Origin: Methylococcales bacterium
GTDB taxonomy: Bacteria > Pseudomonadota > Gammaproteobacteria > Methylococcales > DRLZ01
Assembly (NCBI GenBank): GCA_965224565.1
Contig: CBDCZN010000002.1
Span: forward strand, 602,570-666,569
Reading direction: 5' to 3'
Length of the DNA stretch: 64,000 bases
Shown here one piece after another: positions 29,114-59,542 of this stretch (the stretch's first letter is position 1; each line of letters starts with the position of its first letter). Position numbers and translations under genes: made by a program. A model generated the notes under the pieces. That model saw nothing but the letters and a program-made list of their open reading frames with translations. It was not told the DNA's origin and did no database searches.

Positions 29114-29653
29114 TCATCTACGCCAGATTGCAGAAAAATCAAGGGGAATGGTACATCCTGATAATTCAAATTCAAGCGTACCCTTTGAAAAATCCCCTTT
29201 TTTTTGATAGGAGCCATTGATCCATATGTAAACTTTAGCGACATTGGTTTCTGGATAAACAAGAATATAATAGGCAACACCTTCTTTTTCGTATAACTGG
29301 AATTTTAATAACTCATCTCGTTTTGCAGTTGATGGCGAAGATACCTCAAATATAACACTCGGAACCATTACGACTTTTTCATCAACCTCATCACAAAGAA
29401 TTAAAACATCCGGCTTAACAATGGTATCGTTAGAAACTAGCCAATCAATCTCCATCAGCGCATAGCAACCAGAACAATGATCATGCTTATCTCTAATAAC
29501 GTTATTTAACTCGGTGAGGATATTGCCTGCAACAATTTGATGGGAAACTGATGGGGCTGGTGACATTGCATAAGGTGTACCTGCAACCAATTCCCAGTCA
29601 CCTTCCCAAATTTTGTAGTCTTCAAGAGTGTAATGCTCATGATAAGCTAACAT
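29114..29653 (-). CDS. Uma2 (DUF820) family PD-(D/E)xK putative endonuclease, long type (copy 1)
   Basis: YTLEDYKIWEGDWELVAGTPYAMSP...KPDVLILC...VIFEVSSPSTAKRDELLKFQLYEKEGVAYY is the Uma2 signature. The start is placed at MLAYHE (aggtg Shine-Dalgarno sequence 5 nt upstream); the track ORF extends to 29674. Confidence 0.8.
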   Translation of the reverse strand: MLAYHEHYTLEDYKIWEGDWELVAGTPYAMSPAPSVSHQIVAGNILTELNNVIRDKHDHCSGCYALMEIDWLVSNDTIVKPDVLILCDEVDEKVVMVPSVIFEVSSPSTAKRDELLKFQLYEKEGVAYYILVYPETNVAKVYIWINGSYQKKGDFSKGTLEFELSGCTIPLDFSAIWRR

Positions 29654-29774
29654 ATGAACACCTAAATACAGCAACTAATAAATGGATTGACAGCATAGCA
29701 TAAGAATGAACAACACTAAACGTTAAGCTATCTTCAACATGAAATGAACCTGAGCTCATCTTTTCAGCAAATCC

Positions 29775-29923
29775 TCGCGTAGAGCAGGCAGTGGATAAGC
29801 AAAGCGTTCTTGTCGTTGCAATTGCCCAGCGAATGCGAAACTGACATTAATATGCGACAAAATAAATTTCATTGCTTGTTCAAGCGCTTCAAACAGGGTG
29901 TCTGTGATTTGACGATCATCCAG
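29775..29923 (-). pseudogene. Internal ~150-bp remnant of a third AlbA_2/HATPase_c_4 gene copy
   Basis: The nucleotide stretch aligns by eye with 28075-28228 and 35400-35555. It encodes LDDRQITDTLFEALEQAMKFILSHINVSFAFAGQLQRQERFAYPLPAL and has no flanking coding continuation. Confidence 0.75.
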
Positions 29924-30028
29924 ACTTCATGCTGCTTATAGAGGCTGTGTACACAAGCTGGGAAAGGATACTTTGGTTTACGCGAGTCGATTTGCGTTAA
30001 TGTGCAGGCTGGTTTAATTGACAAGTTT

Positions 30029-30719
30029 TCAAGTGATAGATTTCAACTTTTTTTCAAAACAAGACCTAATCTCTTCTTTACTAATATTAACTTTAGGCTC
30101 AAGATGTAAAATATTATCATCATCTATATCATCTATATAGATCAAGGCAATGGCGAAAAGCTTGAAATTAACTCCTTCAACAATAGACATAGAATAGTCA
30201 AATATTTCTTTTAGAGAAAATACTTCATTTGCTAAAAAATATAAATCATAATAATCTCTATATTTAGCCCTCAAGAAGAGAGTGTTTACTTTCATAGCAG
30301 CGATTGATTCAATCGATGATAAATTAAAATCCTCTGTTTTTTTTTGGTTTTAAAAAATCCCATTTAGCATTAAAAAAAGTCACTTTAACAGTATTAATCA
30401 ATATATCGATTTGATCATCCGTTTGATTGATTATTTCTTTATTATCAAATCTTTTTAGGTAAGAAATAATTTCTCCTTTGTCAAAAGTGTCATTATAAGT
30501 AAAAAAATACAGATCTTCACTTTTTCTATGTCGTAAATGCAACGCCAAAGCAGAGCTACCCACTAATACATAATCACTTAAAAAAGGTGCCGTATTTATT
30601 AAGGTAAGCAGCAGTCGCTGTGTGTCAAACAACAAGTAATCTAAGTTTTTCACGTCTGGCACTTTTGATTTCCTTAAAGTAGCCGCTTTCAATATCCATA
30701 GAGAACAATACTCTTGCAA
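30029..30719 (-). pseudogene. AbiEii/AbiGii-type nucleotidyltransferase toxin, split into two ORFs (30324-30719 and 30029-30295)
   Basis: The N-terminal ORF has VLVGSSALALHLRHRKSEDLYFF (AbiEii G-x-x-AL...R.S.DLDF-like motif). The C-terminal ORF has LRAKYRDYYDLYFL (R..RDxYDL motif). The frames differ and the break lies next to an A9 run (T9 on the + strand at about 30336-30344). Confidence 0.6.
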
Positions 30720-31074
30720 TAAAAAGGTTTAAGCGAATAAATCTTCTATCATCAACTAATTTTTCTAACCAAACCTGCTTAACCATTTTTAGACCAAAAA
30801 TATCAAGAGCAGTCTTGAGATCACCAAAATCCCCATATTTCAAAATTGTCTCACACAAGGCTTCATCACCCAGCTGTTCACAGGAGAGTTCTTTTGAATA
30901 ACTCCAAAATAACCCCTTATTTTTTAGTACCTCAAACAAGGAAACTTTAATTCTGTGTTGTTTTAAAACTTTTGAAATTAAGACATTAGATACTTTTAAG
31001 TATTCAGCAATATCATTCTGTTTATAACCATCATAGACAGCCTTTACAATATTATAATTTCTCGTTGCAATCAA
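30625..31074 (-). CDS. HTH protein, probable cognate antitoxin/partner of the AbiEii-like gene
   Basis: 149 aa with an N-terminal HTH (QNDIAEYLKVSNVLISKVLK). LFWSYSKELSCEQLGDEALCETILKYGDFGDLKTALDIFG resembles the small domain often encoded just upstream of AbiEii genes. It sits immediately upstream of, and overlaps, the toxin ORF. Confidence 0.5.
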   Translation of the reverse strand: MIATRNYNIVKAVYDGYKQNDIAEYLKVSNVLISKVLKQHRIKVSLFEVLKNKGLFWSYSKELSCEQLGDEALCETILKYGDFGDLKTALDIFGLKMVKQVWLEKLVDDRRFIRLNLFIARVLFSMDIESGYFKEIKSARREKLRLLVV

Positions 31075-31735
31075 AAAGAGAATAATCGCTCAAATGTTTA
31101 CATTTAACTCTAGCAATACCATTGCTTTTTTTATTAAATTTAGCCTGATGTAACTCAGACAACTGGTTTTTATCATTTTCATTAACTATATTTTCAGATA
31201 ATCCTAATAAACCCGTTGTATTATCAAGTCTAATAATAATTCCAAGATTTAAACAGTGCATTTTAATCTTGGGCGCGATTGGTTTGGTTAAGAAAAAAGA
31301 GGACGCATATGCAAAATCACCAATTTTTCGAGTAATCCCAGCCTTAATCGGATTACACTCAATATATTTAACCAAGCTAAAGAGGTATGACTCATCATAA
31401 ATATACCAAGATTGAAACCTTCCCTGCCAAAGGTGGCCTACTCGATTATATTTTTTATTAAAATAGATAGCATATTTTGAGTTTATTTGTCTCATTATTA
31501 GAGACAGGTTAGTCTTTGTTATTTCAATAAGCAAATGATAATGATTGTCCATCAGGCAAAATGAATGCATGATGAATTTATAAAGGTCCGCAGTCTCATC
31601 AATAATATCTATGAATTTGTCCCGATCATCATCGCTGAGAAAAACGGTACGGTGCTCAACTCCTCTATTGATGATGTGATAAAACCCTATTTCCTCTATT
31701 CTAACTCGTCTTGCCATATGGATAGTAACAGTCAT
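31052..31735 (-). CDS. IS200-like Y1 (HUH) transposase / REP-associated tyrosine transposase-like protein
   Basis: 227 aa. Motifs: FYHIINRGVEHRTVF, HUH motif MDNHYHLLIE, GHLWQGRFQS and the catalytic-Tyr region VKYIECNPIKAG. No flanking IS ends were identified. Confidence 0.75.
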   Translation of the reverse strand: MTVTIHMARRVRIEEIGFYHIINRGVEHRTVFLSDDDRDKFIDIIDETADLYKFIMHSFCLMDNHYHLLIEITKTNLSLIMRQINSKYAIYFNKKYNRVGHLWQGRFQSWYIYDESYLFSLVKYIECNPIKAGITRKIGDFAYASSFFLTKPIAPKIKMHCLNLGIIIRLDNTTGLLGLSENIVNENDKNQLSELHQAKFNKKSNGIARVKCKHLSDYSLFDCNEKL

Positions 31736-31839
31736 GATGACTCAATAGAGTACTAGTTTATATCAAGAAAAGTTAAAAATAAATACCTGGCACCATTTGT
31801 TGAAAGTCTTTCATGACAGAGATAACAGCATTCATAAAC

Positions 31840-32994
31840 TCAGTCAACAATAAAATCAGAATACCGCTCTAAAAAGGAAAGAACCCGATCAATATTGTCT
31901 GGAGTCGTAGGTAAATTCACAACATGGGAAGATAAATATTGAGCAACAGGAAAGTTCTCACGCTGAAATTTCCATGCTGATAAATCACCTTCAACAGGAT
32001 GTAACGGAGAAGTAAACCATTCCCCCAGATTAATACGGTGCTTTTCCGCTAATGCCATGAATTCACTACGCTGATTAACTAACAAGGGATATTTCAAAAA
32101 TGAATGATTTACAAACCATTTCTCAGCAACATGATTTTTGCCAAGTTGGATAAGAAAATTGGTATATATTTCAGCGTTCTGTTTGCGCTTTACAAGATCT
32201 GAAGAAAGATTTGGTAGGGTCCTTAAACCTTCTTTCGCTTGTATATTACTAAATCCTTTAAAATAGTCATCAGGCATGTTAATAGAAATAATTTCCTCAC
32301 CAGAAGATGAACCTACAACGAGATTATTTCTACTTAACAAACGAAAAAATTTTACTAGTGGCCAATAAGTAATTTCATTAATTAAAAAACGCTTAATAAA
32401 ATACAACACCTTCAAATTCAATAAATCTTTAGTCGAAGGAGCGATTAGTTCAGAATTCAAGGACAATAAATGATCTGTTATTGTTTTATTATTAGCAATA
32501 GAAAAACCACCTAGCCCTGTTGAAAAAGGTTTATTCCACTGCGTCGAATAAATGGCGGCATCACAAGTCAATCCGTTAGCAATCCCATCATATGTTCCCC
32601 CGAAGCCTTGTGTGCAATCCTCAATGGTATAAAGATGATATTTCTTGGCTAATGCATTAAGCACTTGAAGATCAGTAGATAAACCATAAGTATTTTGACA
32701 AATAATAACCTTTGATTTATCTGTAATAGCATTCTCTACTTGAGCAACATCCATGTTATAGGTATCAGCAGCCACATCTACATAGACAGGTTTCGCGCCT
32801 AAATAAATAATCGCATTTGGGACAACCACACAAGTGTATGCAGGAAGAATAATCTCATCACCTTCTTGTACATCCATTGCCTTTAATAAGGCATAGAGGC
32901 CAACACGTGCTTTCCAATAAAACGTGATTGTCTTCTTATTGACTGATAATAGTTGAGCGATTGAAAATAGGAACGAATTTTTAGTGTTAGACAT
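31840..32994 (-). CDS. DegT/DnrJ/EryC1/StrS family aminotransferase (second, intact)
   Basis: 384 aa. PLP aminotransferase-like (ILPAYTCVVVPNAI, YSTQWNKPFSTGLGG). Its C-terminus matches the remnant at 26986-27204. Confidence 0.8.
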   Translation of the reverse strand: MSNTKNSFLFSIAQLLSVNKKTITFYWKARVGLYALLKAMDVQEGDEIILPAYTCVVVPNAIIYLGAKPVYVDVAADTYNMDVAQVENAITDKSKVIICQNTYGLSTDLQVLNALAKKYHLYTIEDCTQGFGGTYDGIANGLTCDAAIYSTQWNKPFSTGLGGFSIANNKTITDHLLSLNSELIAPSTKDLLNLKVLYFIKRFLINEITYWPLVKFFRLLSRNNLVVGSSSGEEIISINMPDDYFKGFSNIQAKEGLRTLPNLSSDLVKRKQNAEIYTNFLIQLGKNHVAEKWFVNHSFLKYPLLVNQRSEFMALAEKHRINLGEWFTSPLHPVEGDLSAWKFQRENFPVAQYLSSHVVNLPTTPDNIDRVLSFLERYSDFIVD

Positions 32995-34827: not shown

Positions 34828-36207
34828 TTATTCCTCTTCGCAGGTAAGATTCTTATTCAATATTGCATGATAACCACCTGTTTTGGGTGATCCTCTAAAC
34901 TCGATTTTGTTTTCATCTTTTAATTGTTTCAGCCTGCGCTCCAGAGTTCTCTGGGGTACAGCGAATACCATTTTTAGCTCACTGGTTCTTTTCCCAGGAT
35001 GAGTGCCAATATAAGCCAAGAGGGAATTTACTCCGTCATTTACTCCGTCATTTACTCCGTCATTTACTCCGCCATGCCTCTCTTCATCTTGCTGAAATGT
35101 GACCAATACACCATCGCCCATTTCCTCAATTTTGAAGGTTACGTGTGGATAATCCTGAAGTACTTTGCGAATACGGATGAAGCCACTGCCGTATTTTTCA
35201 ATATTTTTTGTCAGGTAAAATGCTTCTGCAACTAACTTGTTACGCAGGTGTGATTGATAGTGATCCGTTTTGATGTCTTCTATCGTTAAGCCACCATAAA
35301 ATCGACCAGGGCTAAAAATCGTGATGCTGTGATCAAAAATTTTTATTTGAATATCAGATGGGCTAGTGTAATCACGGTGAACCAATGCATTTAAAAGTGC
35401 TTCGCGCAGAGCAGGCAGTGGATAAGCAAAGCGTTCTTGGCGTTGCAATTGTCCAGCGAATTCGAAACTAACACTGATATGCGACAAAATAAATTTCATC
35501 GTTTGTTCAACTGCTTCAAACAGAGTGTCTGTGATTTGACGGTCATCCAGAATCAAGGTGGGTGTTTTGAAACGCCCAATATGGATGTGGTGTCGCAAAG
35601 GTTCTTGTGCGAACAGGAGTAATGCAGCCCAGCTAGGTTGTTGTTCAGTGATATATTTAAGCTTTTCCAGTGCTAATAATGGTGATGGATCGAGGTTAAA
35701 CCGTCCCCCGTCGTTCACCTGCGTGATAAATACTTCTATTTTTGTAACAGACAAATCATCGAGTTTCGCATTAATTGCTGGGTAGGTATCCCACGACAAT
35801 TGCAATGATTGCATGTAAAGATCATTAATCTCACCTAAGCTAAGCTGGTGATTGGAGCTGGCAATGCGTTTGAAATATCGTCCTCGAGTATTGACTGGCT
35901 TAACCGGATATTCACCTATGGAGAATAGTGCTAGAGTTTTTCCATTTATATCAACAGCTGAAATGTCAGGAATGATTGATGGACTGGTAGTGGATTTAAC
36001 TTGACCAAGCCATTCATTCAGTGTCTCTTTCCCTAATGTGATGCCTTGAACAACACCTTTGTCAGTAACGCCAACCAATACGCGACCGCCTTCAGCATTG
36101 GCAAAAGCAACCAAAGTTTCAATCGTGTTGCGATCGAACGAGGTTTTAAACTCAGTACTTTGTGATTCGCCTTGTGTGATTAGTGTCGCAAGGTTTTGTT
36201 CTTTCAT
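34828..36207 (-). CDS. AlbA_2 (Schlafen-like) + HATPase_c_4 + wHTH protein (copy 2)
   Basis: Paralog of 27544-28896 with very high amino-acid identity across the whole length. The track ORF extends to 36279; I prefer the Met of MKEQNLATLITQGES by alignment with copy 1. Confidence 0.8.
   Translation of the reverse strand: MKEQNLATLITQGESQSTEFKTSFDRNTIETLVAFANAEGGRVLVGVTDKGVVQGITLGKETLNEWLGQVKSTTSPSIIPDISAVDINGKTLALFSIGEYPVKPVNTRGRYFKRIASSNHQLSLGEINDLYMQSLQLSWDTYPAINAKLDDLSVTKIEVFITQVNDGGRFNLDPSPLLALEKLKYITEQQPSWAALLLFAQEPLRHHIHIGRFKTPTLILDDRQITDTLFEAVEQTMKFILSHISVSFEFAGQLQRQERFAYPLPALREALLNALVHRDYTSPSDIQIKIFDHSITIFSPGRFYGGLTIEDIKTDHYQSHLRNKLVAEAFYLTKNIEKYGSGFIRIRKVLQDYPHVTFKIEEMGDGVLVTFQQDEERHGGVNDGVNDGVNDGVNSLLAYIGTHPGKRTSELKMVFAVPQRTLERRLKQLKDENKIEFRGSPKTGGYHAILNKNLTCEEE
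35025..35072. repeat. In-frame 12-bp tandem repeat, 4 copies (a/catttactccgt/c), encoding GGVN(DGVN)3
   Basis: Read directly from the sequence. It sits at the same position as the 3-copy array in copy 1. Confidence 0.9.
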
Positions 36208-36428
36208 CCCACCTTGCTCAACTTTGTTATATGCAGCAACTTGACCATTATTAATGGAATGGGGATAGCTGTTTGTCATGATTGCGCAGAACTATTGTTT
36301 ATCTTTAAGGCGCTAAAACAGGCGCATAGCTATCTACGTGACTGTTTTAGTGTATTGCTCTCGGCAAAAAATCAACACGCTATCAATTCCGCAGCCGCGC
36401 GAAGTATAAGCCTGCCTCAAAATAATCA

Positions 36429-36968
36429 TCAGCTACGCCAGATAGCAGAAAAATCAAGGGGAATGGTCCATCCTGATAATTCAAACTCAAGCTTACCCTT
36501 AGAAAAATCCCCTTTTTTTTGGTAGGATCCATTGACCCATATGTAAACTTTAGCAACATTTGTTTCTGGATAAACAAGGATATAATAGGCAACACTTTCT
36601 TTTTCGTATAACTGGAATTTTAATAACTCATCTCGTTTTGCAGTTGATGGAGAAGACACCTCAAATATAACACTCGGAACCATTACGACTTTTTCATCAA
36701 CCTCATCACAAAGAATTAAAACATCCGGCTTAACAATGGTATCGTTAGAAACCACCCAATCAATCTCCATCAGCGCATGGCAACCAGCACAATGATCATG
36801 CTTATCTCTAATAATATTATTTAACTGGGTGAGGATATTGCCTGCAACAATTTGATGGGAGACCGATGGAGTTGGAGACATTGCATAAGGCGTACCTGCA
36901 ACCAACTCCCAATCTCCTTCCCAAATCTTGTAGTCTGCAAGAGTGTAATGCTCATGATAAGCTAGCAT
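36429..36968 (-). CDS. Uma2 (DUF820) family putative endonuclease, long type (copy 2)
   Basis: Near-identical paralog of 29114-29653 (MLAYHEHYTLADYKIWEGDWELVAGTPYAMSP...). The track ORF extends to 37034. Confidence 0.8.
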   Translation of the reverse strand: MLAYHEHYTLADYKIWEGDWELVAGTPYAMSPTPSVSHQIVAGNILTQLNNIIRDKHDHCAGCHALMEIDWVVSNDTIVKPDVLILCDEVDEKVVMVPSVIFEVSSPSTAKRDELLKFQLYEKESVAYYILVYPETNVAKVYIWVNGSYQKKGDFSKGKLEFELSGWTIPLDFSAIWRS

Positions 36969-37244
36969 ATGAACACCTAAATATGGCAACAAAGAAATAA
37001 CGGGTTGACAGCATAGCATAAGAATGATCAACACAAAACGTCAGAGACCTAAATCCGCAAATGATTGTGAAATCGGGTGCTGATTCAGCACAATGTCTAT
37101 TATGTGGACCGTTTGTGACCTGATTGATAACCGTGAAGAACATAAAGATAATGAAGGAAAGAGAATTTAGTGATTTGTCGAATAAAGAGTGAGGAATTAA
37201 TAATTAAGTGACTATTTTTGATTAAAACATGTATTCGCTTCTAT

Positions 37245-37946
37245 TTAATATTGTTCTTCTTTTTTTCTAATTAAGTATATACGATTAAGACGAACAATGA
37301 CAAAAGCAATAACTGAAAAGATTGTCGGCCATATTCCTCTTATTGAAATATTCTTTTTTAGAAGAGATAATCTTGCGATCATCGCCAGATATTTAAGATC
37401 AAATTCTTCATGTTCGATGCTTGAGATAAATTGATCAACTAAGGCAGGTGGGAAATATTGTTCGAAGGGTGTACGGTAAGGACTGCTTAATTTTTGTTTC
37501 AACCCTAAAACCTTGTCCTGTCTTAATCTACCCATATGAAGTAGTTCCTTTAAATAGGATAAGGCTAATTCATTTTCCGGCTTTAAAACTTTAATGCTAT
37601 TGTGGTACTTATAGTCATGAATTATAACATAATGATTCATATAGACTAAACCAGCATAATTAAACGTCGACCATATGTCGATATCTATAGAATCTGCTTT
37701 TGAAATTAAGCGTAGTTTTAAAACATCAAGTCTTATGTCTTTTATGTTTAAAGTATATGAATATTCTTCACCTATACTTATAATAATAGCGATAAAATCA
37801 TCTAAGTCATTTTTTAAAACGCCAAAGTCAATGTCGTTAGAATAGGCGTTAGGGAGGTTTTCGAACCCTCTTAACACAACATAGCAAATTTTACTTAGCT
37901 CAAGTTTTAGAAACAAATAAGGTAATATCGACTCTGAATGACTCAT
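37245..37946 (-). CDS. Hypothetical protein, possibly an uncharacterised nucleotidyltransferase-fold protein with a C-terminal TM helix
   Basis: 233 aa. VVLRGFENLPNAYSNDIDFGVL resembles the KG...R..DIDLL motif of uncharacterised NTases found in glycan loci. The C-terminus (WPTIFSVIAFVIV) is hydrophobic. Confidence 0.4.
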   Translation of the reverse strand: MSHSESILPYLFLKLELSKICYVVLRGFENLPNAYSNDIDFGVLKNDLDDFIAIIISIGEEYSYTLNIKDIRLDVLKLRLISKADSIDIDIWSTFNYAGLVYMNHYVIIHDYKYHNSIKVLKPENELALSYLKELLHMGRLRQDKVLGLKQKLSSPYRTPFEQYFPPALVDQFISSIEHEEFDLKYLAMIARLSLLKKNISIRGIWPTIFSVIAFVIVRLNRIYLIRKKEEQY

Positions 37947-42711: not shown

Positions 42712-42817
42712 TATTTTTGCTTACTAAGGGCTTTAGCGGCACTCTCAAACGCCAATGACTGACCATTAACTGGTGGTGATTTTGATCCTACAAGTAATAT
42801 TTTAATTTGGACACTAT

Positions 42818-44026: not shown

Positions 44027-44031
44027 TTTAC

Positions 44032-45528: not shown

Positions 45529-45569
45529 TTAAAATATATGAAGCATTTATTCATATGCAATTAATATAA

Positions 45570-49263: not shown

Positions 49264-49522
49264 TACTTACTTTTCTTCCCTGCCTCCAGCTTGTTAATCT
49301 CGCTGAATAGCCGTTCAGGCTCTTGGTATCGATGAATCACCATCGGTAATACTCTTCCCTGCGACCGATCAATATCGTGAATTCACTAGCTGAGCTCATC
49401 CTGATAATAGTTATTCTCAATAACTTATGCTCGAGAATTAGGGGGCATTTTTTACATTCAATAGAATTTTGATAAAAATTAACGAATCCGACCATTTTAA
49501 AGCAAAGAGTATACAATTGCTA

Positions 49523-50927: not shown

Positions 50928-50985
50928 ACCAAGATATAGATTGACAGTAATATGCTGATTTTGCTCTTGGTTCTGGTTTACTGGT

Positions 50986-51113
50986 ATTATTTGATTTTCT
51001 TTTTTGCCATATATTTTGATTTTGGATTGACTTCTATAGTTTGTAGCTTTGGTACTAACACGACATCCATATCTTCCATAGGGATTGCTCCCAATAATAC
51101 TTCAGACTCACCA
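50986..51113 (-). pseudogene. 3' fragment (~40 codons) of a retropepsin-like protease gene
   Basis: Aligns by eye almost base for base with 56429-56566 (the 3' end of the intact gene 56428-56850). It abuts the IS right end. Confidence 0.75.
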
Positions 51114-51215: not shown

Positions 51216-51479
51216 ATGAAACAGTTAACCATTCGCGGGTTTGATGAAGAACTGGAGAAATATTTATGTCAACTGGCAAAAGACGAAAATATTTCCCTGA
51301 ATAAGGCAACAGTTAAACTTCTACGCCAAGCAGCCGGTCTTGACAGAAAAAAGCGAGCACCCGACGTCATTGGTAATGCGCTGGATGAGTTTATTGGCGT
51401 ATGGTCGAGCCAGGAAGAGCGTCAATTTAACGATGCCATTCAGGTGTTTGAGGTTGTTGACGATACTTTATGGCAATGA
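51216..51479 (+). CDS. vapB: Ribbon-helix-helix antitoxin (VapB/FitA-like)
   Basis: 87 aa. MKQLTIRGFDEELEKYLCQLAKDENISLNKATVKLLRQA is an RHH pattern. It overlaps the downstream PIN gene by 10 nt. Confidence 0.75.
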   Translation: MKQLTIRGFDEELEKYLCQLAKDENISLNKATVKLLRQAAGLDRKKRAPDVIGNALDEFIGVWSSQEERQFNDAIQVFEVVDDTLWQ

Positions 51480-51871
51480 AACTTTTATTGGACACCAACG
51501 CCTATTCAGTCTTCATGTCGGGGCGCGACGAAGTGGTCGATCGTATCCGCCGCGCGGAGCGGGTTTTCCTTTCCACTATCGTGATCGGCGAGTTGCTATT
51601 CGGCTTTCGCAATGGCAATCAGTTTGATAAGAATTATCGAATACTGGAAGCCTTTCTCGACAATCACTTTGTGGAGCTAGTGCCGGCTACACTCACGACG
51701 GCGGATCGTTTTGGCCGAATTGCTGCCGCATTACGCGCGAAGGGACGACCATTGTCTTCTAACGATATATGGATTGCCGCTCATACTCTGGAAACGGGCG
51801 CGGATTTGCTCTCATACGATAACCACTTTCGGGAGATTGATGGCTTGCCCTGGATCCACTTAACGATTTAA
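51470..51871 (+). CDS. vapC: PIN-domain toxin VapC
   Basis: 133 aa. LLLDTNAYS (first acidic residue), GELLFG and SSNDIWIAAH are typical PIN/VapC motifs. Confidence 0.85.
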   Translation: MAMKLLLDTNAYSVFMSGRDEVVDRIRRAERVFLSTIVIGELLFGFRNGNQFDKNYRILEAFLDNHFVELVPATLTTADRFGRIAAALRAKGRPLSSNDIWIAAHTLETGADLLSYDNHFREIDGLPWIHLTI

Positions 51872-51976: not shown

Positions 51977-52528
51977 TCATTTTCTAAAACGTTTAAAAAT
52001 GGTTGAGAAGTCAAAACTGAGCGGACAACTTAGTTTGGTGAAATCAAAGGCTTCAGTATCGCATTCGGCGACTTTTAATAGTTTTTTGCCATTATGCTGA
52101 TAGATTCTGGCAACAAGATCATCTGGATAAACCTGGCAGTAATATTTAACCCCTTGATTCTGGTAGATCTCAAATTTCAGACCTTCATCCCGTTTGGCTG
52201 TCGATGGGCTTAGTACCTCAAAAATAATTTCGGGTGTTTTGGCGATGTAATTGGGGTTTTCATCATTGCAAACGACTGCAACATCAGGTTTGAGGATAGT
52301 GGAGGTATCCAGCTTCCAGTCTTCATCAATCAGAATTTCACAGTTTGGACAATTATTTGTTTTGTTGTTTATCTCACTAAAAATATAGCCTACAAGCATC
52401 TGATGTGTTTTGACTGGCGCAGGCGACATCGCATAGGGAATACCTTCAATAAGTTCCCAGTCGCCTTGCCAGTGTTGGTAATCTTCATAAGTATAGGCTG
52501 GCAGGTCTTCTGTTTTTAGTATTCCCAT
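51977..52528 (-). CDS. Uma2 (DUF820) family putative endonuclease, long type
   Basis: 183 aa. YTYEDYQHWQGDWELIEGIPYAMSP...KPDVAVVC...IIFEVLSPSTAKRDEGLKFEIYQNQGVKYY. Confidence 0.8.
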   Translation of the reverse strand: MGILKTEDLPAYTYEDYQHWQGDWELIEGIPYAMSPAPVKTHQMLVGYIFSEINNKTNNCPNCEILIDEDWKLDTSTILKPDVAVVCNDENPNYIAKTPEIIFEVLSPSTAKRDEGLKFEIYQNQGVKYYCQVYPDDLVARIYQHNGKKLLKVAECDTEAFDFTKLSCPLSFDFSTIFKRFRK

Positions 52529-52866: not shown

Positions 52867-54525
52867 GGATTAATCGTAACTTCTCATTATCCACAGGCAG
52901 CAGCTTGAAGAATATCCGCCATTGGAGGAATCTGTTTCGCATTCGACGTACGATCAAGCAGGTAGCTCCAGAACGAAATCCCATGCTTGCGACAGGTTTT
53001 CTTTAAACTGGCAAAGGTGTCCCTGCATTGCCGACCCGCTTCACTGCGGGTGCTCCCACTGATCTTGCGTTTCTTGACGTAATCCCGAATATCCCGTTCA
53101 CTCAGGTTATTGTGCAAGGGAATCTCCGGTCTTTCCAATACACGGAATAATTCATGCTGATTGTTGCCCATGCGTTTCAGGATCTGATTCAGCGTTTCAT
53201 AATCGGTGCGCGTCGATACCAGTTGATGGAACTGCGCTTTCAAGCGCGTTGCGTGCGCTGGGTCAGGCGCTGTTTTATAGATTTTCAAACCCGCATAAAT
53301 CGACCAAACTTCATCCCGCGCCCAGCTGACTGCTTGCTTTTGCAGATCATTCACAGGAATGAGCCGCGTCATCAGTCGCTCTGTATGAATCCAGCACAGG
53401 ACATGATCAAAGACATTGAATTGCCCCGCATCGTCACTCACAATGCCAAGATTGATTGGAATGCCTTGATCGAGCAAGCGCCCAACCAGCATCCCTTCGG
53501 TGAGAATCCGCTGATGACGTTGATTGGTGATCCCTTGCTCTTCCAGCCAGTGCTCTAAAGCAGCGGGTGTCTCAAATTTAATTGGTTGGGTTTCAAGCGA
53601 TTCCAATAGAAATTTCGGAAGCTTTTGGCGTTGCATGTATTCCAGAGCACCCGCATTGATGACGTAGGCCTGGCAACCACTTCTGCTCAGCAGCTCAAGA
53701 AAGTTAACACGACTTTTAGACTCAGTACTTTCAAACCAGGCAAACAGCTCATTGCCAATATGAGTACAGTAACCGGTCTTGCCCTGATGGCGAGCCCCGG
53801 TGTCATCTGCGTGAATATAGCTGGACAGCGGCAGTCCATAACGCAGCAGATCGCTTTTTTCCTGGTGAAACACGTCAAGGTCTTTGGTCAGCATTTGACT
53901 TAATTGACCGCTGGAGATATCAATACCAAGATCATGCAGTTGTTCCAGCAACAGGGGCTGAGTGACGTGCTGATGATGATATTGATACAAGATAAAACTG
54001 TGTAAGTTTGATCCCCAATGGCCACTACGAACCGATTCAGGTAACTGGGCAATGACATAACCCTCACTGGTTTCATATTCGGCCAGACGATAACGAATGG
54101 TGTGAGGACAAATGATCAGATCTTGAACAATAATGTCTCGATAGCCTTTAAAGCGTGCGTCCTCCGAAAGATTGGCGGGCTGTATGATGCGCTCTTCATG
54201 AATCGTCAAATGCTGGGTTTTACTGCGTTTGGGGCCTTTCTTTTTTCCGGTACGAGCACTATCGTCTTCTGGTTCTGTCTGTTGATCCATCCCGCTGGAC
54301 TTGAATTTAGGTTTTCGAGTCTGTTTGTTCAACCTGTGAATGTCATCTTCTAATTGCTCAATGCGATCTGATTGCCATTGGAGAAGTTCAAGCAACGCAT
54401 CGACTAGTGGCGTGCGATCAGCATCTGAAATGGGTGGCAATAGCGGCTTTACAGAATTCATTGAATGTAGTTTATTACATTTAATTCGTAATTGCCTGTA
54501 AATAATGAGAAGTTACGATTAATCC
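52867..54525 (-). mobile_element. Insertion sequence (1659 bp), IS66-family-like
   Basis: Perfect 24-bp terminal inverted repeats ggattaatcgtaacttctcattat (52867-52890) versus ataatgagaagttacgattaatcc (54502-54525). A single transposase ORF lies inside. No obvious target duplication. Confidence 0.8.
52887..54461 (-). CDS. IS66-like DDE transposase
   Basis: 524 aa. N-terminal coiled coil, IHADDTGARHQG, and a C-terminal HNNLSERDIRDYVKKRKISGSTRSEAGRQCRDTFASLKKTCRKHGISFWSYLLDR that resembles the IS66 TnpC C-terminus. The family assignment is by resemblance only. Confidence 0.65.
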   Translation of the reverse strand: MNSVKPLLPPISDADRTPLVDALLELLQWQSDRIEQLEDDIHRLNKQTRKPKFKSSGMDQQTEPEDDSARTGKKKGPKRSKTQHLTIHEERIIQPANLSEDARFKGYRDIIVQDLIICPHTIRYRLAEYETSEGYVIAQLPESVRSGHWGSNLHSFILYQYHHQHVTQPLLLEQLHDLGIDISSGQLSQMLTKDLDVFHQEKSDLLRYGLPLSSYIHADDTGARHQGKTGYCTHIGNELFAWFESTESKSRVNFLELLSRSGCQAYVINAGALEYMQRQKLPKFLLESLETQPIKFETPAALEHWLEEQGITNQRHQRILTEGMLVGRLLDQGIPINLGIVSDDAGQFNVFDHVLCWIHTERLMTRLIPVNDLQKQAVSWARDEVWSIYAGLKIYKTAPDPAHATRLKAQFHQLVSTRTDYETLNQILKRMGNNQHELFRVLERPEIPLHNNLSERDIRDYVKKRKISGSTRSEAGRQCRDTFASLKKTCRKHGISFWSYLLDRTSNAKQIPPMADILQAAACG

Positions 54526-54826: not shown

Positions 54827-55378
54827 TCATGCCTGTTTTCTAAATTGCTTAAACACATTATCAAAATCTATTTTTGCCTTGCACGTAGTATCTTCGAATT
54901 CATAAATTTCCTTAAAAAAGTCGCCCTGTTTGGAGTATTTACTATTTTCTAGTCGATACAGTTTTGCCTTGCAGTCATCTGGATACACGATTATGTAGTA
55001 TGCAACTTTCTCTCTTTCGTATATTTCAAATTTGAAAACTTCATCTCGCTTGGCTGAAGATTGACTTACAACTTCTACTATAATTTCCGGGGTTTTTGTG
55101 ATGTATTGATCATTTGGTTCATCACATATCAAAACCACATCAGGTTTCAAAATAGTATCATTTCTTACCTTCCAATCTTCCTCACCTAACACCAAGCATC
55201 TTTCACAATTTCCTATTGAATTCATCAATTCATTTAATATTTTACCTGCTATCGCTTGATGATTGATCACTGGAGATGGGGTCTTTGACATAGGGATACC
55301 CTCTAGCAATTCCCATTTTCCTTCCCAGAGAAGATAATCATCGTAGGTGTAATACTCTATTGCTTTTTCAGTTGTCAT
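54827..55378 (-). CDS. Uma2 (DUF820) family putative endonuclease, long type
   Basis: 183 aa. YTYDDYLLWEGKWELLEGIP...KPDVVLIC...IIVEVVSQSSAKRDEVFKFEIYEREKVAYY. Confidence 0.8.
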   Translation of the reverse strand: MTTEKAIEYYTYDDYLLWEGKWELLEGIPMSKTPSPVINHQAIAGKILNELMNSIGNCERCLVLGEEDWKVRNDTILKPDVVLICDEPNDQYITKTPEIIVEVVSQSSAKRDEVFKFEIYEREKVAYYIIVYPDDCKAKLYRLENSKYSKQGDFFKEIYEFEDTTCKAKIDFDNVFKQFRKQA

Positions 55379-55551
55379 TGATTATTTCCTTCTTCTACCT
55401 TCAGTTTTCTAATTTCGCTGTATAGGTAGCTCAGGCGATCGTTAGGGTTTGCTATATACAGGGCAAACACCGCTTAAATTCAATCCCAGCGCACCGCTAT
55501 TGCGTACTCTTGATTTTAATAAGCAGGAAACTTCAGTAAATAAACAGCTAA

Positions 55552-56022
55552 TTACTCATTCTCGGCAGCCAATTTCAACACCGCCTCAATCAACGACTGA
55601 GATAGATATATCCTGCTTGCAGCGATATCTTCAACTTGGGTTTTTATTTTTGATACAAGCCCTGCTTGTTTTGCACTGAATAAAATACCAAGAGAGCCAA
55701 TTGTATTAATCCCATTAATTTTGGCAGTTCTTCTGCCTCTTCTGTCATCAATTAAAAGCATGTCTGCTGATTTTTGTTTGTATAGCAACATGGCTTCAGT
55801 TTCTCCTGCATCAGTATTTCCATCCAGGTAGATAAAATCATGCATATTTACTTCGCGTACTTTTTCTTGTAGATAGTTCTCAAGTATTTTTGCTTCTGGC
55901 TTATCACTTTTTACTACTTCCAGAAAGACAGCTTCCGGCACAAACACTTCTTTAAAAAGTTGATCTTATAGTATAAGACCATCGCATACTGAAAGTGCTG
56001 AACTATCAGCAACTAAAATCAT
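55552..56022 (-). pseudogene. DUF3368 (PIN-like) toxin gene with an in-frame TAA at codon 19
   Basis: The ATG at 56022 overlaps the upstream stop (ATGA). Translation: MILVADSSALSVCDGLIL-TAA-DQLFKEVFVPEAVF... in the same frame as the track ORF 55552-55947. The C-terminus GETEAMLLY...LLIDDRRGRRTAKINGINTIGSLGIL is DUF3368-like. Confidence 0.7.
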
Positions 56023-56270
56023 TGATTGACCATACTTTCAAGTTCTTTCTGTAACTCCTCTTTTGTAACATTGATTACTGGTATTTGTTCTTCTTTACAG
56101 CATCTCATAAATTCATAGATATCCAAATTAGCTAGCTCTGCTGCTTTTGAGAGGGTAAGGTTGGCTGTTTTGTATAATCTTAGTGCATACGATAAACGCG
56201 TTTCTTGTTTGACTTTTTGCTCAGACTGCATTGTCATAAAGTCATTGGGTAATTCTATCGCTATTTGCAT
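56019..56270 (-). CDS. UPF0175 family antitoxin
   Basis: 83 aa. ALRLYKTANLTLSKAAELANLDIYEFMRCCKEEQIPV matches the UPF0175 pattern. It sits upstream of, and overlaps, the DUF3368 gene. Confidence 0.7.
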   Translation of the reverse strand: MQIAIELPNDFMTMQSEQKVKQETRLSYALRLYKTANLTLSKAAELANLDIYEFMRCCKEEQIPVINVTKEELQKELESMVNQ

Positions 56271-56285: not shown

Positions 56286-56427
56286 TGAACCAAAGCCAAT
56301 CTGGTCGGATTTGATTGATTTTCCATAAGTGGAACGCCGTTTTCGGCAACACAGACATGCATCGCCAGATTAGAACGACACAGTTCAATCAAGTCAGTTT
56401 TATCTAATTCAATGCCCTTTACTTTAG
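56286..56427 (-). pseudogene. C-terminal remnant of an MNT-type nucleotidyltransferase antitoxin gene
   Basis: Encodes KVKGIELDKTDLIELCRSNLAMHVCVAENGVPL, alignable with MGIESNKIDLIELRRSNLAMRASVAENGISL of the intact gene 57340-57723. It starts directly after the stop codon of the protease gene. Confidence 0.65.
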
Positions 56428-56850
56428 CTATTTTTTGATTTTCTTTTTTGCCATATATTTTGATTTTGGATTGACATCTATAGTTTGTAGCTTTGGTACT
56501 AATACGACATCCATATCTTCCATAGGGATTGCCCCCAATAAAACTTCAGACTCACCAGGAAGTACAGCAGCATTACAGCTAGTCGTTCTGTTTTTAAAAT
56601 TAATTATTAAAGGCCCAACAACTTTCATAGGTTGCAATGAACCATCAGCAAGTTCTGCTTCCATCGTATCCATAACAGGCAAATCTAGTTGAGCTTTTAT
56701 GTGTTCATTGATACACATCATATATGCACCACTATCAACTAATGCTGTTACATTTTCTTTTTTAATGTCTTCCTTGTCGATGTAACCTTTCCTCGCTAAT
56801 TCAAAATCCCCAGCACTTACTAGTTCTAAATCCGCATAAATTAATTCCAT
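56428..56850 (-). CDS. Retropepsin-like (clan AA) aspartic protease, small stand-alone form
   Basis: 140 aa with the catalytic motif in TALVDSGAYMMCI and a second-half GAIPMEDMDVVL typical of small bacterial/archaeal retropepsin-like proteins. Confidence 0.7.
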   Translation of the reverse strand: MELIYADLELVSAGDFELARKGYIDKEDIKKENVTALVDSGAYMMCINEHIKAQLDLPVMDTMEAELADGSLQPMKVVGPLIINFKNRTTSCNAAVLPGESEVLLGAIPMEDMDVVLVPKLQTIDVNPKSKYMAKKKIKK

Positions 56851-56915
56851 ATTTCAATCCTCGTTGCTTAAAGTGGCTTTAGTCCGAGATATCCTCGCCA
56901 GCACAGGGGTGGAGG

Positions 56916-57350
56916 TCATTCATGCTTAGCTTTTCCATTCTCTTCAATTGTCTTAAGTAAAAAGTTCATGACAAATTGTTCGCTATCAGACATCACCCAT
57001 TCTATTACTTTATTCATGTCAATATTCATATAATCGTGAACGATACGATTACGAAACCCGATGACTTCATTCCATGCTGGAAGAGTGGTTGCTTCTATTT
57101 CACCACAACGTGCTAACGCAGAAAATGCGTCATAAGCCGAAATTGGTACAGCTTCGTTATGTGCTTTAAGGAGTTGTTTTGCTTTTCCTATTGCATTTTC
57201 GATTAGTACCTGCAAAGCATGCAGCACACCACTTTGTTCTAACAAGCTCAAGGTGCCACGCTGAGCCATAATTTCTCTTGCCTGTATTAATAATGCTGCT
57301 TGCTCTGTGGCAATGCGCGCAGTTTCTGCTTGATATAAATCAAGCCGCAT
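56916..57350 (-). CDS. hepT: HepT (DUF86) toxin of a HepT/MNT type VII toxin-antitoxin pair
   Basis: 144 aa with the Rx4HxY motif in FRNRIVHDYMNID. It overlaps the upstream MNT gene by 11 nt. Confidence 0.8.
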   Translation of the reverse strand: MRLDLYQAETARIATEQAALLIQAREIMAQRGTLSLLEQSGVLHALQVLIENAIGKAKQLLKAHNEAVPISAYDAFSALARCGEIEATTLPAWNEVIGFRNRIVHDYMNIDMNKVIEWVMSDSEQFVMNFLLKTIEENGKAKHE

Positions 57351-57723
57351 GACTTTGATCCCAGTAGAAATCTTCCAGTTCGCGCCAGGTGCGGGTTAAA
57401 AAATATGCCCAGGCCAAGGTCTCTTCACCTGTAAGTGAAATACCATTTTCGGCAACAGATGCACGCATTGCGAGATTAGAGCGACGTAGTTCAATCAGGT
57501 CAATTTTATTTGATTCGATGCCCATTGCTTCCGCTATATTTCTACGCAATGTCTCGGTTTTGCCAAGTAGCTCTAGCCAGTCTAACTGCATATTCCATTG
57601 CAAGGCGATATCCCAATCGCTGTCGGGTTGGGCTGTACCATTTGCTCTGCTGCCGATCAATACTGCGAATTCTATAGCCGACTCATCGTGTAGTTGTTTC
57701 CTCAGTAGCTTATGTATATCCAT
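57340..57723 (-). CDS. mntA: MNT minimal nucleotidyltransferase antitoxin
   Basis: 127 aa with the NTase motif VLIGSRANGTAQPDSDWDIAL (GSx...DxD). Confidence 0.8.
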   Translation of the reverse strand: MDIHKLLRKQLHDESAIEFAVLIGSRANGTAQPDSDWDIALQWNMQLDWLELLGKTETLRRNIAEAMGIESNKIDLIELRRSNLAMRASVAENGISLTGEETLAWAYFLTRTWRELEDFYWDQSHAA

Positions 57724-57763
57724 GGGGGTGGGATTGTAGTATGGAAAATGATAATTGATAATA

Positions 57764-58231
57764 TTAGACCAAGCCTTTTAAATCTATATTGAAAATTGAT
57801 TGAGTTTGTTGACCCTGGTGATTATGATATGTTACCTGACCATCCTCCGTTACTAGCCAAACTTCTTTTGCGCCCGCTTCTAAAAACAATACAACCTTGT
57901 CGATCATTTCTTCTCGCGTATTTGAGGGAGAAATAATTTCCACACATAATTCTGGTGCTGATAATGCATAGACATCTTTTATATGCTTTTGCACATATTC
58001 TTTGGAGCCCCACGCCACATCAGGCACACGAATTCCTTGCGTTGTTTGCACTGCAAGCTCGGTAAATACTTCGCCATCTAATTGATTACCCAATAATTTA
58101 GTTAATCTTCCTTGCAACAAACTATGAATAAATGATGCCGGGGACATTTCTATTATACCTTTTTCATTCAGTTCTATTTTATAAGGTAGATCATGTAATG
58201 ATTTGTCTGCTAAAACATCTTGCCATTGCAT
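57764..58231 (-). CDS. Uma2 (DUF820) family putative endonuclease, short type (1 of a tandem triplet)
   Basis: MQWQDVLADKSLHDLPYKIELNEKGIIEMSP...VPDVAWGS...ELCVEIISPSNTREEMIDKVVLFLEAGAKEVW. The start is at the ATG at 58231, preceded by ggag (Shine-Dalgarno sequence); the track ORF extends to 58270. Confidence 0.75.
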   Translation of the reverse strand: MQWQDVLADKSLHDLPYKIELNEKGIIEMSPASFIHSLLQGRLTKLLGNQLDGEVFTELAVQTTQGIRVPDVAWGSKEYVQKHIKDVYALSAPELCVEIISPSNTREEMIDKVVLFLEAGAKEVWLVTEDGQVTYHNHQGQQTQSIFNIDLKGLV

Positions 58232-58351
58232 GTTTTCTCCTATTTTGTTGCTAATGCTAAAGATACTCATAATAAACGGAGTTGTGTCTCAGGCGGGGTC
58301 AGGATTTAAGGACTTTACCTCTATAGCTCCATTATATGATAGGGCTAAATA

Positions 58352-58828
58352 CTATTGTTTTTTTATTGTCTGCGCAGTCGGTGCAATGCTACTTTCTTTA
58401 ATTTCGCCCGTATGTGTATAGGTGTTTATTCTTCCATTCTCATAGACTATCCATACTTCATTTGCACCTTTTGCAAGATAGAGATTAACTTTAGTAGCTA
58501 TTTCTTCCTTTGAATTGGATGGAGAAACAATTTCAACACAAATCTCTGGTGCTTTTGGGTAAGGTGTTTTGTAGGAAAATTTGTTTATAAAATCATTTGA
58601 AGCCCAGGCTACGTCCGCTACTTTTACGCCGTCAGCTGTTTGGATAGAACATTCTGCTATGACTTCTCCTTTTGGTAGCTTACTATTTAAATTAATGCTA
58701 ATTTGTACTTGTATGCGACCATGTTGATTAGAAGCTGGACTCATTAGAATGTTGCCGAATTTGTTCAGCTCAATTTTAAAAGGAAGGTCTTGTAGTAAAG
58801 GGTTGTTGATGACTTCAGACCATTGCAT
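58352..58828 (-). CDS. Uma2 (DUF820) family putative endonuclease, short type (2 of 3)
   Basis: 158 aa. MQWSEVINNPLLQDLPFKIELNKFGNILMSP...VADVAWAS...EICVEIVSPSNSKEEIATKVNLYLAKGANEVW. Confidence 0.75.
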   Translation of the reverse strand: MQWSEVINNPLLQDLPFKIELNKFGNILMSPASNQHGRIQVQISINLNSKLPKGEVIAECSIQTADGVKVADVAWASNDFINKFSYKTPYPKAPEICVEIVSPSNSKEEIATKVNLYLAKGANEVWIVYENGRINTYTHTGEIKESSIAPTAQTIKKQ

Positions 58829-59071
58829 TTTACACCTCTACAATCATAATATTTTCTTAAGAAAATAAGCGTTAAGTAATTACCGGGATTGGATCAAACC
58901 TGTGGATTTAATAATTTTCTATAACTTCTAACTATATAATAAGCTGAAATATATTTTATTTTTGCATTGGTGAAATATCATTAGCCTCAAACTTGCCCCG
59001 TTACCTTTTCTCTACCTTTTGTGTTAATTGCACGAAAAAATCACTGTAATGCAAAAAAAAAAAACAGAAAA

Positions 59072-59542
59072 TTAAATACTTGATGGAAAACTAACAGCCA
59101 CATTTGAGCTTTCCAGCTCACCTTCTTTTACAAAAAAACTCATATTACCAAGACTGTCACATACCCAAAACTCTAAAGCCCCTTGCAGAAAATATAATTC
59201 TTTTTTCTCATTTAGTTCACCTTTTGTGTTGGAAAAAGAAATTACTTCAATACAAATCTCGGGGGCTATTGAGCATTCAACCTCATTTTTTATTTTTTCC
59301 AATAAGTCATTTGATGCCCAGGCAACATCGGCTACTTTTGTTCCCTGTTGTGTGCTGATGGCGCATTCAGCTAAAGCCTCGCCTCCCGTCAAGCATTGAT
59401 ACAAGTTGCCGATGATTTTTCCTTGAAGAATAGAATGATTAACTTTGACCGGAGTCATCAATACTTTCCCTTGGTTATCGAGTTCTATCTTGAACGGAAT
59501 ATTTTTAAGGTATTGATTTTCACATGCTTCTTGCCACTGCAT
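59072..59542 (-). CDS. Uma2 (DUF820) family putative endonuclease, short type (3 of 3)
   Basis: 156 aa. MQWQEACENQYLKNIPFKIELDNQGKVLMTP...VADVAWAS...EICIEVISFSNTKGELNEKKELYFLQGALEFW. Confidence 0.75.
   Translation of the reverse strand: MQWQEACENQYLKNIPFKIELDNQGKVLMTPVKVNHSILQGKIIGNLYQCLTGGEALAECAISTQQGTKVADVAWASNDLLEKIKNEVECSIAPEICIEVISFSNTKGELNEKKELYFLQGALEFWVCDSLGNMSFFVKEGELESSNVAVSFPSSI

Follow-up and report, generated by a model that had tools for sequence, protein, structure and literature searches.

The Uma2 family (DUF820; Pfam PF05685) is among the larger prokaryotic protein families without a demonstrated activity, although its fold and active site were predicted some 20 years ago. 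We analysed a 64-kb stretch of a Methylococcales bacterium genome (contig CBDCZN010000002.1 of assembly GCA_965224565.1; called the window below, its positions serving as coordinates throughout) that carries eight genes of this family, numbered U1 to U8 by rising coordinate. The eight span 30.4 kb, all lie within a polysaccharide (glycan) locus, and all share the orientation of the glycan genes. By their sequence identities, they represent six lineages plus two recent duplications.

All eight minus-strand open reading frames (ORFs) were confirmed in the ORF listing of the window, and each matches PF05685 (47.2–79.9 bits, E 2e-22 to 2e-12, with U3 scored on its largest open piece); membership in the family calls for more than the gathering threshold of 27 bits along most of the model. 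A preliminary description of the stretch had placed eight Uma2 genes at these positions and had left their family assignment to profile searches; every copy is so assigned. Five are of a long type. U1 (29114–29653) is intact, encodes 179 aa, scores 79.9 bits (E 2.1e-22) and lies in copy A of a 2.2-kb repeat. U2 (36429–36968), also of 179 aa and 93% identical to U1, scores 78.8 bits (E 4.6e-22) and is identical to a database protein (P0121). U3 (48715–49263) is a pseudogene whose translation is broken by two in-frame stop codons and no frameshift; it is 90% identical to U5, and its largest open piece scores 59.7 bits (E 3.2e-16). U4 (51977–52528; 183 aa; 76.4 bits, E 2.5e-21) is of a separate lineage and lies between a convergent VapBC module and an IS66-family transposase gene, and U5 (54827–55378; 183 aa; 77.9 bits, E 8.6e-22) has orthologues in two related strains (L097 and L098). 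The three short-type genes are U6 (57764–58231; 155 aa; 70.2 bits, E 1.9e-19; NCBI MEE9425431), U7 (58352–58828; 158 aa; 59.8 bits, E 3.1e-16; MEE9425432) and U8 (59072–59542; 156 aa; 47.2 bits, E 2.3e-12; MEE9425433), the last directly downstream of wzc, and GenBank/NCBI already labels these three 'Uma2 family endonuclease'. The start codons chosen earlier for U1 (ATG at 29653) and U2 (36968) agree with homologues, which for U1 begin MLAYHEHYT, and for U6 a start at 58231, which gives NCBI's 155-aa product, is most likely. A hidden Markov model (HMM) built from the eight copies found no further member in the six-frame translation of the window (next best E = 1); the remaining 33.6 kb, including 19 kb of core genes, contains none.

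The identity matrix upholds the proposed division into five long copies, one of them a pseudogene, and three short ones. Proteins of different classes share 21–31% identity, the short-type copies are 37–43% identical to each other, and long-type pairs other than U1/U2 and U3/U5 are 42–49% identical. Setting those two close pairs aside, U1, U4, U5 and U7 are nearer to proteins of other organisms (75%, 62%, 55% and 92%, respectively) than to their paralogues in the window, U4 being 42–48% identical to the latter. Likewise, U6 and U8 are 46–53% identical to foreign sequences versus 37–43% to each other or to U7. On this pattern, the cluster is not the product of one gene amplified in place. The question raised in the preliminary description, local duplication or independent acquisition, therefore has a divided answer: recent duplication accounts for only two of the eight copies, and the other lineages are separate.

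Both duplications were detected by self-blastn. The first is a 2.2-kb segmental duplication of 27536–29723 and 34850–37041, both on the minus strand, with 91.4% identity over 2206 nt; copy A carries U1 and a gene with AlbA_2 and HATPase_c_4 domains (27544–28896; Pfam SLFN_AlbA_2 and HATPase_c_4), and copy B carries U2 and a second such gene (34828–36279). The second repeat, of 590 nt (48721–49310 and 54836–55425, 91% identity), covers U3 and U5. Because a 3′ fragment of an aspartic (Asp) protease gene is duplicated too (50985–51113, 96% identical to 56429–56557), this repeat seems to be what is left of a larger duplication into which an insertion sequence (IS) of the rve type was later inserted. 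Other rearrangement scars are an internal piece of the AlbA_2 gene at 29775–29924 (91%) and a fragment of the 3′ end of a DegT gene at 26970–27209 (84% identical to 31824–32063). The ratio of non-synonymous to synonymous substitution rates (dN/dS) is 0.13 for U1/U2 (dS 0.22) and 0.17 for U3/U5, dS being about 0.22–0.25. By these low values, the duplicates have evolved under purifying selection, and the stop codons of U3 are recent.

Comparison with related strains shows that the order and number of Uma2 genes vary, which supports the earlier interpretation. Two contigs from related populations carry lineages found among U5 to U8 beside their own, different glycan genes. In the window the order is Wzc, U8, U7, U6, MNT/HepT, Asp protease, UPF0175/DUF3368 and U5. 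The first contig (L097; 83–91% DNA identity) reads Wzc, gmd, fcl, U6 with an in-frame stop, U7, MNT/HepT, a U5-like gene of 91% identity and GT4; U8 is absent. The second (L098) reads U7, a degenerate U6, MazE/PIN, U6, U5 split by a DDE_Tnp_1 IS, U8, a methyltransferase gene and glycosyltransferase genes, so that U6 is duplicated and U8 stands at the end of the array opposite to its place in the window. U6 and U7 exchange places from strain to strain. Homology between the strains extends over one ORF or one toxin–antitoxin (TA) operon at a time, with 3–57 nt of upstream sequence, and the spacers are unrelated. Since the same lineages recur with different order, copy number, pseudogenes and TA neighbours, the array of Uma2 and TA genes at the edge of the capsule locus is persistent in the lineage and yet actively reshuffled, with copies decaying. 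Other assemblies of the locus (L001–L004 and L010) are 99.995–100% identical to the window and add no variation. A search of GTDB genomes for synteny based on wzc gave two loci with no Uma2 gene in their short flanks; in Methyloprofundus there is none in the 3.2 kb downstream of wzc.

The density of the cluster was compared with that of loci from a metagenome scan for U7-type genes. Among the 80 loci collected, 24 of at least 8 kb (281 kb in total) were used; a second Uma2 gene was present in four of these and three Uma2 genes in none, and the density in the window is therefore unusual. If insertions were placed at random on the 3.32-Mb contig, finding six independent ones within one 30-kb stretch would be unsurprising only with far more than 100 copies per genome. 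The density also exceeds that of the published examples compared, of which the largest is a run of four consecutive genes in Crocosphaera.

Predicted structures place both classes in the same fold. The AlphaFold (AF2) model of U1 (mean confidence score, pLDDT, 89.8) matches the DUF820 structures 6okh (E 3e-13, template-modelling (TM) score 0.83–0.84), 9y1l, 3ot2 and 1wdj, and that of U7 (pLDDT 90.8) matches 1wdj (E 1e-9), 6okh, 9y1l, 3ot2 and 3ijm, with TM scores for the two models ranging from 0.6 to 0.84. Neither model matched any structure other than DUF820 entries below E 1e-3, and the next, weak matches were to other PD-(D/E)xK nuclease domains such as DrdV, Bax1 and R2. By sequence, a search of PDB retrieved 9y1l and 6okh as the sole matches to the long type and none to the short type. 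The matched DUF820 structures are structural-genomics entries without a described function. The models thus indicate that U1 and U7 share the PD-(D/E)xK (restriction-endonuclease-like) fold of the solved DUF820 structures.

Intact copies keep the active-site residues E...H...(P/A)D...ExxS...K, with the Lys 14 residues past the Glu. In an alignment of 39 long-type sequences (A1), E21, H38, E103 and K117 are invariant and D82 is at least 90% conserved; in one of 28 short-type sequences (A2), E20, D72, E99 and K113 are invariant and the His is missing in three. All intact copies contain the 'PD-EXX-K' site predicted for the family by Feder and Bujnicki. The motif PDV...S-P-S...K reported earlier for every copy is retained as to the active-site Asp, Glu and Lys of intact copies; its other letters vary, with ADV for PDV in U7 and U8, and SQS in U5, SKS in U3 and SFS in U8 in place of SPS. 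The YxxxDYxxWxGxWEL N-terminus and CxxC pair ascribed to the long type were recovered in the alignments, the former as YxxxDYxxWEGDWEL; the short type has neither and is about 25 residues shorter. Four Cys of the long subfamily (C60, C63, C87 and C167) are conserved at 90% or more in alignment A1 and are absent from 6okh and 9y1l, the two solved relatives aligned; in U2 the fourth, C167, is replaced by Trp. Given their co-conservation, it is reasonable to infer that the four form a structural metal site.

The homologues of U7 found elsewhere occur in two kinds of setting. U7 has 2578 homologues, of which the closest are 70–92% identical and include proteins of Candidatus Electrothrix. These Electrothrix proteins (P0046, P0069, P0085, P0111 and P0115), from cable bacteria of another phylum, are 70–75% identical to U7, which indicates a recent cross-phylum transfer. 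Close U7-type homologues (85% and 74% identity) are solo genes, and their DNA similarity to the window ends at the start and stop codons. Often the U7-type gene lies between housekeeping genes with a Shine–Dalgarno sequence and almost no spacer (gaps of 2–34 nt): between pqqC and pqqD in at least six loci (L049, L054, L057, L059, L067 and L076), between prlC (oligopeptidase A) and ubiD in three (L030, L040 and L063), and after purM in one. In the pqq loci PqqC is 90–98% and Uma2 75–95% identical, so that the insertion seems old and inherited in place. The accessory rather than housekeeping setting proposed earlier thus applies to the window and not to the U7-type orthologues stably inherited inside pqq and prlC-ubiD operons; a single lineage has relatives in an accessory island as well as in housekeeping operons. 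The upstream neighbour is co-oriented with the U7-type gene in 21 of 25 loci, against a baseline of 68% (P = 0.06, a trend only). Another U7-type gene sits after two MNT/HepT modules, and in one locus (L006) two Uma2 genes lie 6 kb from each other, of which one follows several TA modules in a row. Long-type homologues (49–53% identity) adjoin VapBC in an island of TA modules and IS elements, or a DNA ligase gene near glycan genes. Pattern scans of IMG/VR viral contigs yielded no long-type locus and one short-type locus, and a phage origin of the family here was rejected on these counts. The sole viral contig with a U7-type gene (L016, 6001–6447) encodes a protein of 58% identity.

As judged by Pfam matches, GC content and the strain comparison, the genes around the cluster make up an accessory, low-GC, strain-variable Wzx/Wzy/Wzc polysaccharide locus, in keeping with the horizontally variable glycan locus described earlier. 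The left 19 kb of the window consists of core genes (formylmethanofuran/tetrahydromethanopterin enzymes of one-carbon metabolism, HemW, AsmA, MutY and DsbA). From 19.5 kb to beyond 62 kb the minus strand carries the polysaccharide locus, with Bac_transf, nucleotide-sugar genes, DegT, ATP-grasp, HAD, three GT1 genes, Wzy, Wzx and Wzc. GC content is 0.30–0.36 in the glycan blocks versus 0.40–0.47 in the core part of the window. One low-GC block bounded by U2 and U3 (38492–48147, minus strand) holds the three GT1 genes, Wzy, Wzx, kinase-like genes and a 483-aa ORF. The wzc gene (59809–62058, minus strand; Pfam Wzz, WZC_N, GNVR and AAA_31), encoding a tyrosine kinase/chain-length co-polymerase, is immediately upstream of U8, U7 and U6; it is a conserved anchor of the glycan locus, and wzb and wza lie beyond it (seen in L003). 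Two ORFs of the glycan locus have no Pfam family, the 483-aa ORF (46696–48147) and one of 233 aa (37245–37946).

Pfam matches also confirm that the Uma2 genes stand beside TA modules, IS elements or AlbA_2 genes. The VapBC-type module (51216–51871, plus strand) pairs a ribbon–helix–helix antitoxin (FitA-like_RHH, a weak match) with a PIN toxin (E 6.7e-17) and is convergent with U4. A two-gene UPF0175/DUF3368 module (55552–56270, minus strand; PADLOC PDC-S70, E 1e-30 and 6e-40) lies between the Asp protease gene and U5, and an MNT/HepT module (56916–57723, minus strand; Pfam Polbeta and HepT-like) directly downstream of U6; the latter module is also next to Uma2 genes in L097 and L100. An rve-family transposase gene (49624–50880, plus strand) separates U3 from the Asp protease fragment, and an IS66-family transposase gene (52887–54461, minus strand; DDE_Tnp_IS66, E 5.7e-19) lies between U5 and U4. 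Further neighbours are an IS200-type transposase gene (Y1_Tnp, 31052–31735), a retropepsin-like gene and the two AlbA_2/HATPase_c_4 genes. The central parts of these Schlafen-like AlbA_2 and HATPase_c_4 proteins match PADLOC models of Argonaute-associated proteins (Aga_SIR2-PNTD and pAgo, E 1e-15 to 1e-9); the window ORFs scanned include no Argonaute. Three small ORFs without a Pfam family (30029–31074) adjoin the IS200-type gene. Six intact Uma2 copies were scanned with the PADLOC PDC-S03 models, U2 being left out, and matched at E 2e-26 to 3e-8; neighbouring genes match other phage-defence candidates of that collection (PDC-S01, PDC-S70 and PDC-S09). An AAA_14 ATPase gene at 24481–25671 on the plus strand, against the direction of the glycan genes, matches PDC-S01 (E 2e-25).

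Several known arrangements were considered for the cluster and rejected. The neighbours of Uma2 genes vary (L005, L006, L011–L015, L097, L098, L100 and 25 metagenome loci) and include no conserved adjacent small antitoxin, as a type II TA module would require, and the neighbouring TA modules each comprise their own toxin–antitoxin pair. A type II restriction–modification system would need a cognate methyltransferase gene next to the nuclease gene; the Pfam scan of the ORFs that surround the Uma2 genes showed no DNA methyltransferase family. The search for an RNA partner found no Rfam family or tRNA in the window, and promoter and terminator scans for each Uma2 copy gave results no better than the shuffle background. 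A conserved module of AlbA_2/HATPase_c_4 and Uma2 genes was likewise rejected: the association noted earlier holds for two neighbours in the window, but this pairing reflects the single 2.2-kb duplication, long-type homologues (49–53%) are never beside AlbA_2, and the 483-aa ORF upstream of U3 is unrelated to AlbA_2.

Each cassette of an integron is followed by an attC site built of imperfect inverted repeats (R″-L″...L′-R′), and an integron adds intI. Like integron cassette arrays and clusters of attC sites lacking integrases (CALINs), the locus consists of co-oriented, ORF-sized, apparently promoterless modules, TA genes among them, whose order and content vary between strains. It differs from them in having no attC-like sites, no shared spacer motif and no integrase: RYYYAAC...GTTRRRY pairs 40–160 nt apart and convincing hairpins are absent from the spacers, no 10-mer occurs in more than three of 29 spacers from three strains, and Pfam finds no integrase domain among the ORFs of 27–62 kb. 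The locus was therefore rejected as an integron array or CALIN.

In T4-like phages, free-standing homing endonuclease genes lie between conserved genes, without terminal repeats, and are patchily distributed. The Uma2 genes resemble these in being patchy nuclease-family ORFs placed precisely between conserved genes with no terminal repeats; they differ in belonging to another nuclease family, in residing on bacterial chromosomes, in having no identified target site, and in that some insertions look old and vertical. The mark of a homing endonuclease gene is presence/absence polymorphism at one site together with cleavage of the empty site by the enzyme. In the present data, ORF-precise units and changes of position between strains are seen, and no common target or flank motif was found at the insertion sites of U7-type genes or in spacers. 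The addiction, restriction-like and homing mechanisms offered as examples in the preliminary description each lack a defining feature, namely an antitoxin or other partner ORF, a methyltransferase family and a target motif; the conserved small partner ORFs that it suggested looking for do not occur across contexts.

We favour, at slightly better than even odds (about 0.55), the reading that solitary, ORF-sized, predicted nuclease genes, each acting alone, have accreted in an accessory hotspot of the capsule locus, with two segmental duplications and shuffling. Each Uma2 protein would be a small, probably dimeric, metal-dependent DNA endonuclease working without a methylase, antitoxin or other partner, and the cell would tolerate it because it acts on a narrow substrate, perhaps a rare sequence, a certain DNA structure or DNA in one modification state. 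The genes would spread horizontally as units of a Shine–Dalgarno sequence and an ORF and persist where insertion is harmless. Their density would then have built up through repeated independent insertion and the two segmental duplications, with recombination shuffling the genes of a recombination-prone locus; the eight would not form one machine. Under this reading the host may gain defence against phages or other foreign DNA, or nothing at all if the genes are purely selfish.

Several points weigh against the accretion of solitary nucleases. In the literature searched, no nuclease activity, toxicity or defence phenotype is reported for any Uma2 protein. The enrichment holds at the scale of the window and relative to the metagenome loci sampled. 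In-place retention inside pqq operons whose PqqC proteins differ by about 9% could indicate a useful cellular role over mere tolerance. Because the eight genes run in the direction of the glycan genes, they may be transcribed together with them and have some role related to the locus. Finally, the ORF-precise blocks could come from a dedicated mobility mechanism and not from trimming after illegitimate insertion.

A dedicated anti-phage array is possible, if doubtful; in it each paralogue would be a single-gene defence nuclease with its own specificity, stacked with TA or abortive-infection modules beside a capsule locus that determines phage receptors. The PDC-S03 matches of the intact copies, the PDC-S01, PDC-S70 and PDC-S09 matches of the neighbours, the HepT/MNT and VapBC modules, the divergent paralogues under purifying selection and the near absence of the family from viral contigs (no match and one match) are all consistent with it, as is the presence of Uma2 genes within type III CRISPR loci of Microcystis (PMC11855584). 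All of this positive evidence is by association. The PDC families are association-based candidates without a reported phenotype, the scanned neighbours include no partner such as a methylase that could distinguish self from non-self, close U7-type relatives are solo genes in housekeeping operons and not in defence islands, and pseudogenes are frequent (U3, U6 of L097 and copies in L098). Homing-like self-propagation, in which the nuclease would break alleles lacking its gene and repair would copy the ORF in, the breaks also driving cassette shuffling and duplication, we regard as unlikely. It was proposed for the family by Feder and Bujnicki (PMC551604) and would account for a mobile unit of an ORF plus ribosome-binding site without terminal repeats, for the precise insertions between pqqC and pqqD and between prlC and ubiD, for the swapped U6 and U7 and the ORF-precise module borders, for cross-phylum spread, and for two direct-repeat Uma2 pairs that bracket 6–7-kb cassettes. 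Against this stand the lack of a common motif across insertion sites, the failure to find an empty site, and the apparently vertical inheritance of the pqqC-linked copies. Moreover, the U1/U2 duplication carries AlbA_2 as a passenger and the U3/U5 pair looks like an IS-interrupted remnant of a larger one, so that ordinary recombination suffices. Less probable again, and frankly speculative, is that the wzc-proximal Uma2 genes and TA operons form a cassette array without attC or integrase whose ORF-sized modules the Uma2 nucleases excise, insert and reorder through breaks at module borders repaired by recombination, driving the exchange of glycan blocks between strains; the four long-type Cys could in that case bind a gating metal or Fe–S cluster.

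It is very unlikely that the genes are solo toxins or addiction elements, each a stable nuclease that punishes loss of the glycan locus and is controlled by an RNA that escaped recognition or by an antitoxin encoded at a distance. Makarova et al. (2009; PMC2701414) do class Uma2 as a probable solo toxin, Kopfmann et al. (2016; PMC4963859) describe a TA-associated DUF820 gene in the hox hydrogenase operon, and Uma2 genes recurrently adjoin VapBC, MNT/HepT and MazE/PIN modules; yet there is neither a conserved adjacent small ORF nor an Rfam RNA in the window, the spacers are not conserved between strains, and pseudogenes arise without apparent loss of the neighbourhood. Least probable of all is that these are housekeeping nucleases of DNA repair or recombination, for example structure-specific and resolvase-like, which are merely multiplied here. 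The fold is related to that of Holliday-junction resolvases (PMC551604), U7-type genes are stably kept in housekeeping operons, and the duplicates are under purifying selection. Such a role sits poorly with a patchy distribution and strain-variable copy number (L097 and L098; PMC9403480), with near-identity across phyla, with pseudogenes, with the absence of Uma2 from the 3.2 kb downstream of Methyloprofundus wzc, and with the setting in an island of TA modules and IS elements.

Many elements of the favoured accretion of solitary genes have precedents. Feder and Bujnicki (2005; PMC551604) proposed selfish, homing-like nucleases that spread horizontally and proliferate with no fixed partner or cognate methyltransferase, and described the PD-EXX-K site, with its Lys moved to the following helix, and a conserved N-terminal His. 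Steczkiewicz et al. (2012; PMC3424549) found the contexts of the family in γ-Proteobacteria to be non-conserved and rich in mobile elements. The selfish or defence-type behaviour suggested in the preliminary description fits our data (the TA and IS setting, strain variation, the Electrothrix relatives and PDC-S03), but the idea had been published in 2005, 2009 and 2012. Family expansion, clustering, TA association and the selfish and defence hypotheses are all in print, and the genes are annotated as Uma2 in GenBank. What is new is descriptive: six lineages clustered with unusual density in the capsule locus of a Methylococcales bacterium, the reshuffling of this cluster in ORF-sized blocks, the long subfamily with four Cys, and the precise and stable placement of U7-lineage genes in pqq and prlC-ubiD operons.

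The Uma2 (DUF820/COG4636) cassettes of Cyanobacteria and Thermus (PMC551604 and PMC2701414) share with the genes studied here the Pfam family, the fold, the PD-EXX-K site and the conserved His, as well as small stand-alone proteins, horizontal spread, clustered or tandem paralogues and no conserved partner. The present cluster differs in its host, a γ-proteobacterium of methylotroph type from the Methylococcales and not a cyanobacterium, represented by a metagenome-assembled genome; it extends dense Uma2 clustering to that order and differs further in its higher density and in its long subfamily with four co-conserved Cys. In Synechocystis, the TA-associated DUF820 gene sll1222 lies in the hoxEFUYH operon, and the authors asked whether TA stabilizes that operon (PMC4963859); it resembles the U7-type genes of pqq and prlC-ubiD, and the eight copies of the window with their shared glycan-gene orientation, as a co-directional Uma2 gene within a functional operon near TA modules. 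The window departs from it in having many copies of several lineages, interleaved IS elements and pseudogenes, and a variable rather than conserved operon. PDC-S03 is likewise matched by HMM and is a single-gene candidate amid defence and TA genes, but many U7 relatives lie outside any island; it is an association-based candidate, and no experimental report or mention of it was found in the literature searched. With six lineages and two classes in 30 kb, intact copies beside fresh pseudogenes and two reordered strain variants, the locus is a compact natural test bed. It supplies genes ready to be cloned for assays of toxicity, nuclease activity and phage challenge, and rearrangement still in progress could be sought here in long-read data from populations.

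Elsewhere in the window, two long, near-perfect intergenic hairpins of about 170 nt (17385–17560 and 63815–63990) have minimum free energies of −95 and −76 kcal/mol (z about −12). Both open with ...TAGGAG and close with CTCCTA..., neither has an Rfam match, and they may be palindromic elements resembling miniature inverted-repeat transposable elements. A 418-aa ORF without a Pfam family (4230–5486) lies beside the fmd/ftr genes. At the left end, an internal repeat at 95–1121 (offset about 300 nt, 64% identity over about 740 nt) runs across the ORFs at 208–1281, which suggests a repetitive protein or tandem gene fragments.

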